Virus record (IMG/VR): IMGVR_UViG_2703718769_000011
DNA from: a virus
Lineage: Duplodnaviria; Heunggongvirae; Uroviricota; Caudoviricetes
Length of the DNA: 6,791 bases
Direction: 5' to 3' (one strand)
Part shown: positions 1,488 through 4,567 of the stretch, in pieces
Layout: the number at the start of each line of letters is the position of its first letter
Position numbering within the stretch: position 1 is the first letter of the stretch
Translations under genes and position numbers: made by a program
The notes under the pieces: model-generated
Databases searched by the model: none
The model's input: the letters and a program-made list of their open reading frames with translations, nothing else
Told to the model about the DNA's origin: nothing

Positions 1488-1676
1488 TTATCCAGCCGGT
1501 GTTTCGTTATTCAGGTACAGCGATACTTTTTTTACCGGGAGGCATTCACCGGGGATTTTTTGTTCGTCCCTTACCTGAATGCAGGATGACTTACTGTCAT
1601 AAATTCCGGTAATCACATTCTGCGGCTCACCCGTTATAAGAAAAACGGTCATCACCAGTGCAAATGCTGAAGTCAT
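1488..1676 (-). CDS. Small membrane protein, 62 aa, YdfD-like (Qin-prophage small lysis protein family) candidate
   Basis: Its ATG overlaps the stop of the upstream DicB-like gene in an ATGA (1673..1676), implying translational coupling. The N-terminus MTSAFALVMTVFLITG is a hydrophobic transmembrane or signal-like segment. Size and position immediately after the dicB-like gene match the dicB-ydfD arrangement; I cannot recall the YdfD sequence, so the assignment is by context and architecture. Confidence 0.5.
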   Translation of the reverse strand: MTSAFALVMTVFLITGEPQNVITGIYDSKSSCIQVRDEQKIPGECLPVKKVSLYLNNETPAG

Positions 1677-1861
1677 TGACGTTCTCCGAAAATACCAAGT
1701 TTAATAAGGGCAATTCGGGAAAGAATGGAATTATCATTGAGCAGATAAGGCTCATATTTCCGCATATTAATGGCATCCTCAGTAAACGCTTTATTACTGA
1801 GCAGAACACCAATATCAAAACAACCTTCAGACGTATTAACGTTTGGTAATAACGTTTCCAT
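1673..1861 (-). CDS. dicB: DicB-like cell division inhibitor (62 aa)
   Basis: The translation METLLPNVNTSEGCFDIGVLLSNKAFTEDAINMRKYEPYLLNDN... closely resembles my recollection of E. coli DicB (starting MKTLLPNVNTSEGCF..., 62 aa). SD GAGGA lies 7 nt upstream of the ATG. It sits downstream of a DicF-like RNA, as in the Qin dicB operon. Confidence 0.75.
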   Translation of the reverse strand: METLLPNVNTSEGCFDIGVLLSNKAFTEDAINMRKYEPYLLNDNSILSRIALIKLGIFGERQ

Positions 1862-2038
1862 TATCGCGTCCTCAACAATGAATTTTGTGATGCAGTGCCT
1901 GGTGCCTCCAGGTGACGTTAACCAGTTAACAATTAACGCCGGATTGTTAGTTGATGTCTGTTACGCAAGTAAAAGACCGCTTGTTTTAACTGTTCCGCGT
2001 GCGCATAGCCGCATTCACCGCATCACAAAATTCACTTT

Positions 2039-2077
2039 AAAAAGGGCGGATATCCATTTCCGCCGAATCACCAGAAA
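2039..2077 (-). ncRNA. dicF: DicF-like small RNA (shortened variant) ending in an intrinsic terminator
   Basis: The minus strand reads UUUCUGGUGAUUCGGCGGAAAUGGAUAUCCGCCCUUUUU. The 5' UUUCUGGUGA matches the DicF seed as I recall it, and the 3' end is a GGCGGA/UCCGCC hairpin followed by a U-run. The following ...TTTTTAAAGTGAATTTTGTGATG also resembles sequence downstream of K-12 dicF. The dicB-like ATG lies about 175 nt downstream. Boundaries are approximate. Confidence 0.5.
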
Positions 2078-2440: not shown

Positions 2441-2593
2441 TTAGTCAGAGTTTCTTGCTAACCAGCGATGCGCGCCAGCTTCGGTTTTAAACGTTTTACT
2501 TTTGGTATACGTCATCGCGGTAAACGTGCCGTCCTGGTTGGGGAAGACGCCGCACACCAGAGATTCATTGTTGCCAAGATTGAGCATATCCAT
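2441..2593 (-). CDS. Small prophage protein, 50 aa (below the ORF-track size cutoff); possibly YdfA/YdaF-like, first gene of the leftward operon
   Basis: ATG at 2593..2591 is preceded by TGAGGT with a 4-nt spacer. Translation: MDMLNLGNNESLVCGVFPNQDGTFTAMTYTKSKTFKTEAGAHRWLARNSD, stop TAA at 2441..2443. The family assignment is from context only (position relative to the dicF/dicB-like genes); I cannot recall a reference sequence. Confidence 0.5.
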   Translation of the reverse strand: MDMLNLGNNESLVCGVFPNQDGTFTAMTYTKSKTFKTEAGAHRWLARNSD

Positions 2594-2782
2594 GTTGACC
2601 TCATTTACCCTTAACGCCGGGTCGCGGAACTAAAAACCTGCTGCGCTGTTATACAAAGTGTTCCCGCCGTCATGTTCATACGCCTCGGGCTGGCTACTTA
2701 ACCCCTGACCACTGCCTGGTAACTCGAAGTATTGCCCTGCGTTCTGTGGGGCGGGGTGGGTTGATGAATATAATCTACAAGT

Positions 2783-2815
2783 AAAAACTGTTTGATGTCA
2801 ACAATAAATAACTGT
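2783..2815. promoter_or_regulatory. Candidate leftward operator/promoter (OL/PL-like)
   Basis: AAAAACTGTT-TGATGTC-AACAAT (2783..2805) resembles the 3818..3846 palindrome with the same 7-bp spacing, and a further AACTGTC lies at 2809..2815. On the minus strand a perfect TTGACA (-35, 2801..2796) is followed after 18 bp by TAGATT (-10, 2777..2772), pointing at the 50-aa gene. Confidence 0.35.
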
Positions 2816-2826
2816 CATTTTGGACG

Positions 2827-2851
2827 AAGAAAACTCCCTCATCAGTGGGAG
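2827..2851 (-). terminator. Possible weak intrinsic terminator after the toxin gene
   Basis: Minus strand CTCCC-ACTGATGA-GGGAG followed by TTTTCTTC, 15 nt after the toxin stop. The stem is only 5 bp. Confidence 0.3.
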
Positions 2852-2865
2852 CAAAAGCGGTGGGC

Positions 2866-3153
2866 TTAAAGATTAGCGGGGAATTGTCGACGGGCGTGAA
2901 CCACGTTTACAATTTCAATACCTGAAGTTGTCACCCGGTACAAAATTATGTAATTGGGGTGAGCCACAATCTCGCGCAAACCTGGCACTCTGTCGCTTGG
3001 CGGATATAAATACGGATGTTCGGATAACGGCAGGACGCAAGCTCTTAAGCGTTGCCATAAGCGTTCTGCCGCATCTATGTCGAAACGGGCAATATAACTA
3101 GTTATATCATCCAGATCGGTATCTGCGCTTTCAAGCCATAACACGGGTAACAT
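2866..3153 (-). CDS. parE: ParE/RelE-family type II toxin (ParE2-like), 95 aa
   Basis: The translation MLPVLWLESADTDLDDITSYIARFDIDAAERLWQRL...EIVAHPNYIILYRVTTSGIEIVNVVHARRQ has the size and pattern of RelE/ParE plasmid-stabilisation toxins. Its ATG directly follows the antitoxin stop (TAA-ATG at 3156..3151). Confidence 0.8.
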   Translation of the reverse strand: MLPVLWLESADTDLDDITSYIARFDIDAAERLWQRLRACVLPLSEHPYLYPPSDRVPGLREIVAHPNYIILYRVTTSGIEIVNVVHARRQFPANL

Positions 3154-3345
3154 TTACTGCTCTCTCCGTTCCTTGCGAATTTTGGCAAAGCGTTCTGCCA
3201 TTCTGCGCTCAACTTCATCATGTGGAATAGCAGGACGTGGATCAGCAAGGCTTGCGGCTACTTTTGCGCGTAACCATTCGTTATAACTGTTTTCTTGCTC
3301 AACGGTTTCAAATTCAGAAACCATTGGTGAAAGGGCTGTATTCAT
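3154..3345 (-). CDS. Small antitoxin, 63 aa, PaaA2-like (ParE-associated antitoxin)
   Basis: ATG at 3345..3343 is preceded by a strong SD AAGAGGAGG with a 6-nt spacer. The ORF-track start at 3408 has no SD and would overlap the repressor stop. Translation: MNTALSPMVSEFETVEQENSYNEWLRAKVAASLADPRPAIPHDEVERRMAERFAKIRKERREQ, charged and probably disordered. It sits immediately upstream of the ParE-like toxin; the size matches the 63-aa PaaA2 of the described paaR2-paaA2-parE2 system as I recall it. Confidence 0.65.
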   Translation of the reverse strand: MNTALSPMVSEFETVEQENSYNEWLRAKVAASLADPRPAIPHDEVERRMAERFAKIRKERREQ

Positions 3346-3374: not shown

Positions 3375-3776
3375 TTACGCTCGGTGCCCCTTTTGGGCTG
3401 CGATCCACCGAGCAACAGTTTCTTCCATTGACTTTTTCTTATTTTTTATTTCCTGAAGCATTTTTTCTTGGTCTTCATCGGGAAATGCACTAAAAGCTTG
3501 GAGCAATTCACGTTGGCGAGGGCCAATTTTCATCGTGTCAGGAGTAAAAATTTGCTCTCCCTCTTCTGGAGGTAATAAAAACCAATGTAGTGGATGCCCT
3601 GTAACCTCGACCAACTTATCTAAGCTGGAGGCTTTAGGTGTGGCTTTTCCACTGACCCATTGCTGAACAGTTTGCTGTGTCACACCGACTCTACGAGCAA
3701 GTTCAGCTTGGCTCCATCCTGTTTCTTTGAGGAGCCTGCTAATTCTGTACATAGATACTTCTAGGGCCTTCATCAT
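3375..3776 (-). CDS. HTH (XRE/cI-type) transcriptional repressor, DicA/PaaR2-like; candidate prophage immunity repressor
   Basis: N-terminal helix-turn-helix SQAELARRVGVTQQTVQQWVSG. The C-terminal part (IGPRQRELLQAFSAFPDEDQEKMLQEI) resembles the DicA C-terminal region as I recall it. Divergent from the Cro-like gene across an operator-bearing intergenic region. The start could be ATG 3776 (no SD, possibly leaderless) or the internal ATG at 3752. Confidence 0.8.
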   Translation of the reverse strand: MMKALEVSMYRISRLLKETGWSQAELARRVGVTQQTVQQWVSGKATPKASSLDKLVEVTGHPLHWFLLPPEEGEQIFTPDTMKIGPRQRELLQAFSAFPDEDQEKMLQEIKNKKKSMEETVARWIAAQKGHRA

Positions 3777-3884
3777 TATTCGATTTTACAGGTAAATACT
3801 GTTAAAAGCACCACAATAAAAAACTGTTGATCATGAACAGTTTTTTATTGTAGCCTTTATCTATGAACTTCAGAGGAGGGCAAC
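3777..3884. promoter_or_regulatory. Divergent operator/promoter region (OR-like) between the repressor and Cro-like genes
   Basis: Perfect 11-bp inverted repeat AAAAAACTGTT-GATCATG-AACAGTTTTTT at 3818..3846, plus another ACTGTT at 3798..3803. SD GAGGAGGG at 3874..3880 serves the Cro-like ATG at 3885. A minus-strand TAAAAT at 3788..3783 sits just upstream of the repressor ATG, suggesting a leaderless transcript. Confidence 0.6.
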
Positions 3885-4145
3885 ATGCTCAATAGCACCC
3901 GTGAAAAAATTAAGCAGAAATACACACAGGCTGAAATAGGACGCTATATGGGAGTAACCCAACAAACTGTTTGGCAATGGTTTAGCTTGGGTATTCCTCC
4001 CAAACAGGTAATCCCTTTATGCCAACTAATGCAGTGGGGGGTTACTCCTCACGAACTCCGACCTGATATTTATCCTAACCCAACAGACGGCTTGCCTGCT
4101 GAGTTTCAGACTAGCACACAGCCAGCGACGGGAGTTGATTCATGA
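3885..4145 (+). CDS. Cro-like HTH protein (YdaS-like), 86 aa
   Basis: HTH QAEIGRYMGVTQQTVWQWFSLG, strong SD, first gene of the rightward operon. Its stop overlaps the next start in an ATGA (4142..4145). Confidence 0.7.
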   Translation: MLNSTREKIKQKYTQAEIGRYMGVTQQTVWQWFSLGIPPKQVIPLCQLMQWGVTPHELRPDIYPNPTDGLPAEFQTSTQPATGVDS

Positions 4146-4567
4146 AAATCAAGCATGAGCACATCCGCATGGCGATGAATGCCTGGGCATATCCTGACGG
4201 TGAGAAAGTTCCCGCAGCTGAAATAGCCCGGACTTATTTCGAACTGGGGATGACGTTCCCGGAACTGTACGACGACACTCATCCTGAGGCCCTGGCTCGT
4301 AATACCCAGAAAATTTTCCGTTGGCTGGATAAAGACACCCATGATGCTGTTGAAAAAATTCAGGCTCTGTTACCGGCGATCGAAAAGGCGATGCCGCCTT
4401 TGCTGGTGGCCCGTATGCGCAGTCACAGTTCTGAGTACTACCGGGAGATTGTCGAACGGCGGGATCGGCTGGTGAAGGATGTCGACGATTTTGTTGCGTC
4501 AGCGGTCGTTTTGTATGACCAGATAAATCGCGGCGGCCCGGCAGGGAATGCTGTGGTGATGCACTAA
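4142..4567 (+). CDS. ydaT: YdaT-like protein (CII-like regulator family; historically annotated toxin YdaT), 141 aa
   Basis: The translation begins MKIKHEHI..., which matches my recollection of Rac-prophage YdaT. It is translationally coupled to the Cro-like gene and has SD GGGAG 7 nt upstream. Confidence 0.6.
   Translation: MKIKHEHIRMAMNAWAYPDGEKVPAAEIARTYFELGMTFPELYDDTHPEALARNTQKIFRWLDKDTHDAVEKIQALLPAIEKAMPPLLVARMRSHSSEYYREIVERRDRLVKDVDDFVASAVVLYDQINRGGPAGNAVVMH

Follow-up and report, generated by a model that had tools for sequence, protein, structure and literature searches.

A probable early-left promoter interlocked with two putative operators in the immunity region of a lambdoid Escherichia coli prophage

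Gene content of the region

We analysed a stretch of 6,791 nucleotides (hereafter the window) that comprises the immunity region and the early-left region of a lambdoid prophage of Escherichia coli. From base 234 onwards, the window is 100% identical to a prophage that, in two bovine isolates, is integrated beside ompW. This otherwise identical prophage has nothing corresponding to bases 1-233. We take these bases to be an IS1-type fragment encoding the end of a transposase, from our own reading of the open reading frame at 9-218.

The immunity region is organised as repressor, paaA2 and parE2 on one side, and ydaS and ydaT, divergently oriented, on the other. The repressor gene (3375..3776, minus strand) is followed by the genes of a PaaA2-family antitoxin (3154..3345, minus strand) and of a ParE toxin (2866..3153, minus strand). 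On the plus strand, ydaS (3885..4145) precedes ydaT (4142-4567), after which come the replication genes. PaaA2, ParE and YdaT were all identified with Pfam and are, respectively, ~90%, ~95% and ~92% identical to PaaA2, ParE2 and YdaT of CP-933P. Matches in the PDB for the set formed by ParE, PaaA and YdaT were at ~90-95% identity (5cw7, 3zbe, 8bt1).

Beyond parE, the minus strand carries the genes that would be served by an early-left promoter (PL). The first gene of this operon is ydfA (DUF1391; 2441..2593; Pfam E = 1.3e-29), which encodes 50 aa. It is followed by a DicF-like small RNA (2039..2077), recognised by alignment to the DicF of K-12 and by direct reading of the sequence, and then by the cell-division inhibitor gene dicB (1673..1861; Pfam E = 1.3e-35), a DUF1482 gene (1488-1676) and an exonuclease gene (229-1392), these three being taken from Pfam and the RefSeq annotation. 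The exonuclease gene is cut: 387 of its ~820 codons are left and it abuts the IS-type fragment. In the intact homologue, xis and int come next.

The DicF-like RNA keeps an intact seed (UUUCUGGUGA) and an intact terminator, and lacks ~17-19 nt internally relative to the DicF of K-12. No part of the window matched an Rfam family at the gathering thresholds, and a relaxed search of positions 1850-2870 (E <= 1) did not return DicF. Between the DicF-like RNA and dicB, the stretch at 1884-2032 (minus strand) gave the only match of this relaxed search, a sub-threshold one to the Rfam family STnc100 (33.2 bits, for a gathering threshold of 47; E = 2.9e-5). This stretch is nearly identical to the Qin prophage of K-12.

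The repressor and YdaS

The repressor is a protein of 133 aa encoded by an intact open reading frame. It combines a 434-like helix-turn-helix domain at the N-terminus with a PaaR2-like domain at the C-terminus. Its closest solved relative is the DNA-binding domain of the 434 repressor (phmmer E = 2.8e-5; 1per, 2or1, 2r63). The recognition helix, TQQTVQQ, aligns with TQQSIEQ of 434 and keeps the equivalents of Gln28, Gln29 and Gln33. Over its C-terminal 97 aa only, the repressor aligns at 39% identity (E = 3e-23) with a PaaR2-type protein of NCTC9112, whose N-terminal DNA-binding domain cannot be aligned with that of our repressor. Pfam returned helix-turn-helix families only, and no RecA-cleavable S24 domain. 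Among the deposited phages, the repressor had no close relative; the best matches showed 41-51% identity over part of the protein.

YdaS, the Cro analogue, was identified with Pfam and has the recognition helix TQQTVWQ. Its helix-turn-helix segment is 44% identical to that of the repressor over 57 aa, including the residues VTQQTV, and is carried on a different scaffold. Judging from the two protein sequences, YdaS is expected to bind the same operators as the repressor. After residue ~71, the tail of YdaS is unlike that of the O26-type protein, and the helix-turn-helix is intact (window 3885-4145; L001 9652-9925). The ydaS gene is also flagged as frameshifted in a RefSeq record that is 100% identical to the prophage of the window. 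Given this annotation and the IS-truncated exonuclease gene, the host element may be cryptic.

Five copies of a 15-bp operator-like unit

A repeat finder returned an 18-nt unit present in four direct copies and one inverted copy, two of them at 2774-2815 and three at 3785-3851. The symmetric core of this unit is the 15-mer ACAR-N7-YTGT, which was found exactly five times in the 6.8-kb window, for an expectation of 0.43; none of 200 shuffled sequences reached five. Three copies, all retrieved by the pattern search, lie between the repressor gene and ydaS and constitute the putative right operators (OR). One adjoins the repressor gene (3788..3802, ACAGGTAAATACTGT), one is in the middle (3813..3827, ACAATAAAAAACTGT; invariant), and one adjoins ydaS (3837..3851, ACAGTTTTTTATTGT). 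The ACA and TGT triplets of OR form an array with a period of ~12 bp (starts at 3788, 3800, 3813, 3825, 3837 and 3849). The two remaining copies constitute the putative left operators (OL), ~1.0 kb from OR and with their centres 24 bp apart: the promoter-proximal OL1 (2777..2791, ACAAGTAAAAACTGT), found by pattern search and read directly, and the distal OL2 (2801..2815, ACAATAAATAACTGT), found by pattern search.

An earlier note on this DNA had described the left site differently, as a single operator of 23 bp lying on a -35 hexamer and repeating the half-site and the 7-bp spacer of a palindrome at OR. Direct reading returned the string on which this was based (2783..2805, AAAAACTGTTTGATGTCAACAAT), and placed the AACTGTC that was said to follow it at 2810..2816 rather than at 2809..2815. 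The likeness between the two sites goes far beyond chance: when up to two mismatches are allowed, AACTGTT-N7-AACAGTT matches only the OL site and the palindrome at 3822..3842 in the window, for an expectation of 0.00. Yet what is conserved is not this half-site with its 7-bp spacer. The motif CTGTT-N7-AACAG arises where two neighbouring 15-mers face each other, each contributing one half, and its apparent spacer of 7 bp belongs to the 9-bp gap between operators, which consists mostly of the -35 hexamer. Instead of one operator covering the -35 hexamer, there are two 15-bp operators flanking it, with 1 bp shared. The third copy at OR (3788-3802) and the outer ACAAT/ATTGT arms of a 39-bp palindrome are accounted for by the 15-mer only.

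We compared OL2 with its counterpart in the O26-type homologues (ACAGTTTTTAATTGT). The two differ at two positions when one is reverse-complemented and at five when they are compared directly. From these sequences, OL2 of the window looks like an operator that has been flipped relative to the O26-type homologues. A dyad-symmetric site tolerates such a flip.

Candidate promoters

The gap of 9 bp separating OL1 and OL2 holds a -35 hexamer, TTGACA (2801..2796, minus strand), which is followed after a spacer of 18 bp by a -10 hexamer, TAGATT (2777..2772, minus strand). Both hexamers and their spacer had been pointed out in the earlier note and were confirmed by direct reading. Together they are the top sigma-70-like match of the window (10/12). 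Around 1.1 matches of this quality are expected in a window of the same composition, and at least one was present in 67% of the simulated sequences. Taken alone, the promoter match is thus within chance and proves nothing.

The promoter and the operators are interlocked. Read along the minus strand, OL2 ends with the T (base 2801) that opens the -35 hexamer. OL1 takes up the spacer between the hexamers, and its final T (base 2777) opens the -10 hexamer. The order on this strand is ACAGTTATTTATTGT, TGACATCAA, ACAGTTTTTACTTGT, and then AGATTATATTC A(2765)TCAAC. The PL transcript is predicted to start on the minus strand near 2765, the A of CATCAAC.

A hairpin followed by a T-tract, with the appearance of an intrinsic terminator, is found on the same strand at 2823..2852, directly after the stop codon of parE and just upstream of OL2. 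The transcript of the repressor, paaA and parE would stop there, just ahead of OL2. Since this hairpin sits between the parE stop codon and OL2, PL would be a separate transcription unit. The homologues keep a hairpin at this position, with different stem sequences.

At OR, a candidate PR has the same design as PL: TTGATC (3827-3832), a spacer of 18 bp, and TAGCCT (3851-3856). Of its hexamers, the -35 would fall between the two ydaS-proximal operators and the -10 beyond them. Over 44 nt, the region of PL and that of PR show 70% complementarity (inverted repeat I1). A candidate -10 hexamer for the repressor promoter, PRM (TAAAAT, 3788..3783, minus strand), abuts the OR operator at 3788..3802 and is only 6 nt from the ATG of the repressor. 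If this assignment of PRM is right, such a short distance suggests that the repressor mRNA is leaderless, as are those of paaR2 of CP-933P and of lambda cI (PMC8630535).

Conservation in related loci

To place these elements in context, we used a set of 52 sequences with the same repressor type, i.e., the window and 51 other loci. The repressors of the closest group are 91-92% identical to that of the window, and those of the more distant ones 81%, 71% and 47%, the latter in Arsenophonus. A scan of species-representative genomes retrieved this one distant relative alone. The helix GVTQQTVQQW is kept in all the homologues of the repressor, down to 47% identity.

The succession operator, TTGAC(A/G), operator, TA(G/A)ATT was present in 52 of the 52 sequences. 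The core of the -35 hexamer, TTGAC, is invariant (52/52). The -10 hexamer is TAGATT in 49 sequences, TAAATT in the two Arsenophonus copies and TAGTTT in one sequence. The strict N7 pattern identified three OR and two OL sites everywhere except in the two Arsenophonus copies, which have two of each; as this pattern fixes positions 1-4 of the operator, the invariance of those positions is partly by construction. The inner bases of the operators drift among homologues, e.g., ACAAGAGTTAACTGT and ACAAGGGATACCTGT. Depending on the locus, 8, 9 or 10 bp separate the operators, and close relatives span 8 to 10 bp at OL. The operators and the hexamers are intact in all 52 sequences despite a divergence of ~18% in the neighbouring genes.

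The Arsenophonus locus (L007 3399-3503) has its OL/PL within ~70 bp after the repressor gene, and there is no toxin-antitoxin pair between them. Because of this arrangement, the paaA-parE pair looks, on the evidence of the sequences compared, as if it had entered a pre-existing association of repressor and PL.

Exchange of the immunity cassette

The alignment of the window with NCTC9112 (locus L054), a PaaR2-type sibling of CP-933P, delimits an immunity-specific cassette at 2770..2879. It includes the -10 hexamer, OL1, the -35 hexamer, OL2, the terminator and the last codons of parE. The flanks of the cassette are ~96-97% identical between the two sequences, with 110 bp of unrelated DNA in between. 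The joints of this mosaic are sharp, one at 2769/2770, between the predicted transcript start and the -10 hexamer, and the other at ~2879, inside parE. The transcribed leader is near-identical up to the -10 hexamer. NCTC9112 replaces the cassette together with the N-terminal domain of the repressor, OR and ydaS, and the YdaS proteins of the two loci do not align. Its operators are TTTAGTAA-type repeats, as published for CP-933P, and these are absent from the window. Hence, on either side of a toxin-antitoxin core that is conserved, two operator sets located 1 kb apart have been swapped along with the cognate DNA-binding domain, which is the classical signature of immunity-specific operators. 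The paaA2-parE2 pair sits inside a larger exchangeable immunity cassette, both operator sets of which are replaced together.

CP-933P, a cryptic prophage of E. coli O157:H7, has been studied experimentally (Jurenas et al., PMC8630535). PaaR2 and YdaS footprint its intergenic region, their footprints differ, and two overlapping classes of repeats have been described there (PMC8630535). Its early-left promoter, PL933P, lies downstream of parE2 with the operators OL1-3 and is repressed ~100-fold by PaaR2 or YdaS; the -35 and -10 elements of PL933P are identical to those of PR933P, and PaaR2 octamerises (PMC8630535). PL933P is the closest experimentally characterised sibling of the PL of the window. 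Both promoters lie immediately downstream of repressor-paaA2-parE2, read away from these genes and resemble the PR of their own locus. The window also has the gene arrangement of the CP-933P immunity region, with PaaA2 and ParE2 co-oriented downstream of the repressor and ydaS-ydaT divergent. The operators, in contrast, are of the GTTTAGTAA type in CP-933P, with three copies at OL, and of the ACAR-N7-YTGT type in the window, with two copies at OL. As the operators of the window are not of the GTTTAGTAA class, it does not share the immunity of CP-933P. A literature search on paaA1/parE1 yielded nothing on operators.

Comparison with Qin, 434 and lambda

In the Qin prophage of K-12, the operator TGTTAG-N6-CTAACA occurs between dicA and dicC and again upstream of ydfA. 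The corresponding promoter, dicBp, is repressed by DicA and is derepressed 22-fold upon deletion of dicA (PMC10448788). The operon downstream is that of the window, with ydfA, DicF, dicB and a DUF1482/ydfD-like gene. In both prophages, the promoter comes after the gene of a short non-cleavable repressor and the operators match those between the repressor and cro genes. Qin differs in having its own operator class and no toxin-antitoxin pair between the repressor gene and the promoter, and the homology of the two sequences begins only ~70 nt before the ATG of ydfA.

The operators of phage 434 have 14 bp (ACAAT-N4-ATTGT), of which the outer 4+4 bp are conserved (PMC1636474). The window resembles 434 in the conservation of the outer tetrads (ACAA/ACAG and TTGT/CTGT) around a non-conserved, A/T-rich centre, in position 5, which is T or G, in the TQQ..Q recognition helix, and in having operators that the repressor and the Cro analogue would share. 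The operators of the window are longer (15 bp, N7), and there are two of them at OL and three at OR, whereas 434 has three at each. Furthermore, the 434 repressor is RecA-cleavable, unlike the 133-aa protein of the window, which has a PaaR2-like C-terminal domain and is paired with a Cro analogue of the YdaS family. We infer the orientation of the half-sites by analogy with 434, a comparison between operators of 15 bp and 14 bp.

The earlier note had also drawn a parallel with lambda and Qin. This holds for the position of the promoter, which is separated from the repressor gene by accessory genes of the same transcript, as in lambda; the position of rexAB is occupied here by the paaA2-parE2 toxin-antitoxin pair. 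Lambda also has tandem operators spaced ~24 bp centre to centre that overlap the -35 and -10 hexamers, and looping between OL and OR is possible in both cases. The proteins and operators are unrelated, however, and lambda has three operators at OL instead of two and a distance between OL and OR of ~2.4 kb instead of ~1.0 kb. Neither N nor nutL was recognisable in the window.

Interpretation and alternatives

The region at 2772-2815 is very probably the PL/OL of a lambdoid prophage, with two 15-bp operators interlocked with a sigma-70 promoter. It shows at the sequence level the features expected of such a site: a promoter beyond the repressor operon, operators of the OR class that overlap this promoter, and co-variation of operators and repressor. 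The reading given in the earlier note, i.e., an OL/PL driving the 50-aa ydfA, the DicF-like RNA and dicB, is supported by every computational test that we ran, namely by the operator class, the conservation in 52/52 sequences, the terminator and the co-exchange with the repressor domain, and also by the experiments on the equivalent promoters PL933P and dicBp.

The anatomy of the site, its conservation, its co-variation with the repressor type and the protein homologies are seen directly in the sequences; from them, we infer for this immunity type the binding, the repression, the start site, the cooperativity and the looping. Repressor dimers would read the outer ACA(A/G) with their 434-type helix (Gln-Gln...Gln). 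They would occupy OL1 and OL2, probably cooperatively, and exclude RNA polymerase from PL. A joint assembly with the three OR operators 1 kb away is possible, and would involve the PaaR2-like C-terminal oligomerisation domain. After the switch, YdaS would bind the same sites. The upstream terminator would insulate PL from the repressor-toxin/antitoxin transcript, and bound repressor may also block read-through. Once derepressed, PL would transcribe ydfA, the DicF-like sRNA, dicB, and the recombination and excision genes.

The same letters can be grouped in other ways. A single operator of ~21-23 bp, AACTGTT-N7-AACA(G/A)T, might be centred on the -35 hexamer and bind one repressor dimer, and would share the architecture of the palindrome at 3822-3842. 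This palindrome is perfect at OR and at the OL of the O26-type homologues, has two mismatches at the OL of the window, and is not expected by chance (0.00). We nevertheless regard this possibility as unlikely. The distance between its half-sites varies with the gap (8, 9 or 10 bp), whereas the strict 15-mer recovers the same positions at every locus, and the conserved bases of its supposed spacer are TTGAC, i.e., the -35 hexamer. It also leaves unexplained the OR copy at 3788-3802 and the outer arms of the 39-bp palindrome. The OL2 of the window, still a 15-mer but apparently flipped, no longer provides an intact right half-site for the palindrome. Finally, a 434-like helix predicts an outer ACA and half-site centres ~11 bp apart, not 13 (PMC1636474). 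Alternatively, the two groupings could be used side by side, with the repressor on the 15-mers and YdaS/Cro on the YTGT-gap-ACAR junctions that hold the -35 hexamer. The ~12-bp periodicity of the ACA/TGT array at OR points in this direction, as do the recognition helix of YdaS, which is the same on a different scaffold, and the two overlapping repeat classes and differing PaaR2 and YdaS footprints of CP-933P (PMC8630535). If this were true, two overlapping operator systems would be written in a single set of triplets, and the junction palindrome would be a second kind of operator. But close relatives differ in the length of the gap at OL (8 to 10 bp), a variation that a rigid dimer would not accommodate, and we consider such a double use very unlikely.

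The site could also be a decayed relic in a cryptic prophage, no longer working as a regulated promoter and resembling OR because PL and PR share an ancestor, or else a LexA (SOS) box. The prophage does look partly degraded (IS-truncated exonuclease gene, ydaS flagged as frameshifted), promoter matches of 10/12 are not uncommon by chance alone, and CTGT...ACAG recalls the SOS box. However, the core of the LexA box, CTGT-N8-ACAG, has no match in the window, where the facing halves are 9 bp apart. The repressor open reading frame is intact, and a relic is unlikely because the operators and hexamers are intact in the window and in all 51 related loci, next to genes that have diverged by ~18%. The probability that we give to a relic or a LexA box is close to negligible.

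In a type of prophage present in ~500 complete E. coli genomes, including O26:H11 strains, the two-operator PL/OL provides a concrete switch by which DicF and DicB would be silenced. It changes no concept, since the same architecture has already been demonstrated in lambda, 434, Qin and CP-933P. The novelty is modest: a 434-like operator code of 15 bp combined with a PaaR2-type scaffold, the clean boundaries of the cassette (2770/2879), and the conserved interlocking of operator, -35, operator and -10. The recognition code, a 434-type Gln-Gln...Gln helix reading ACAR-N7-YTGT, is testable.

The predicted leader of the early-left transcript

The predicted leader of the PL transcript has 172 nt (2594..2765, minus strand) and is highly conserved. 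One block, AAGTAGCCAGCCCGAGGCRTATGAACATGA, has been retained between E. coli and Arsenophonus. In the Arsenophonus locus (L007 3515-3644), with a repressor of just 47% identity, CAATACTTCGAGTTA and AAGTAGCCAGCCCGAGGC(R)TATGAACATGA still persist. At its 5' end, the leader is C-rich and G-poor (ACCCACCCCGCCCCACA), in a rut-like manner. The leader also contains a short open reading frame after a conserved GAGG...ATG, the length and frame of which vary among homologues. We considered whether the leader is a structured RNA and provisionally rejected this possibility: the z-score of the minimum free energy was +1.45, the covariation term of RNAalifold was unfavourable, and compensatory changes were found in only 3 of 24 pairs. 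The conserved block AAGTAGCCAGCCCGAGGCRTATGAACATGA could act in cis on the early-left transcript, as an element not described so far.
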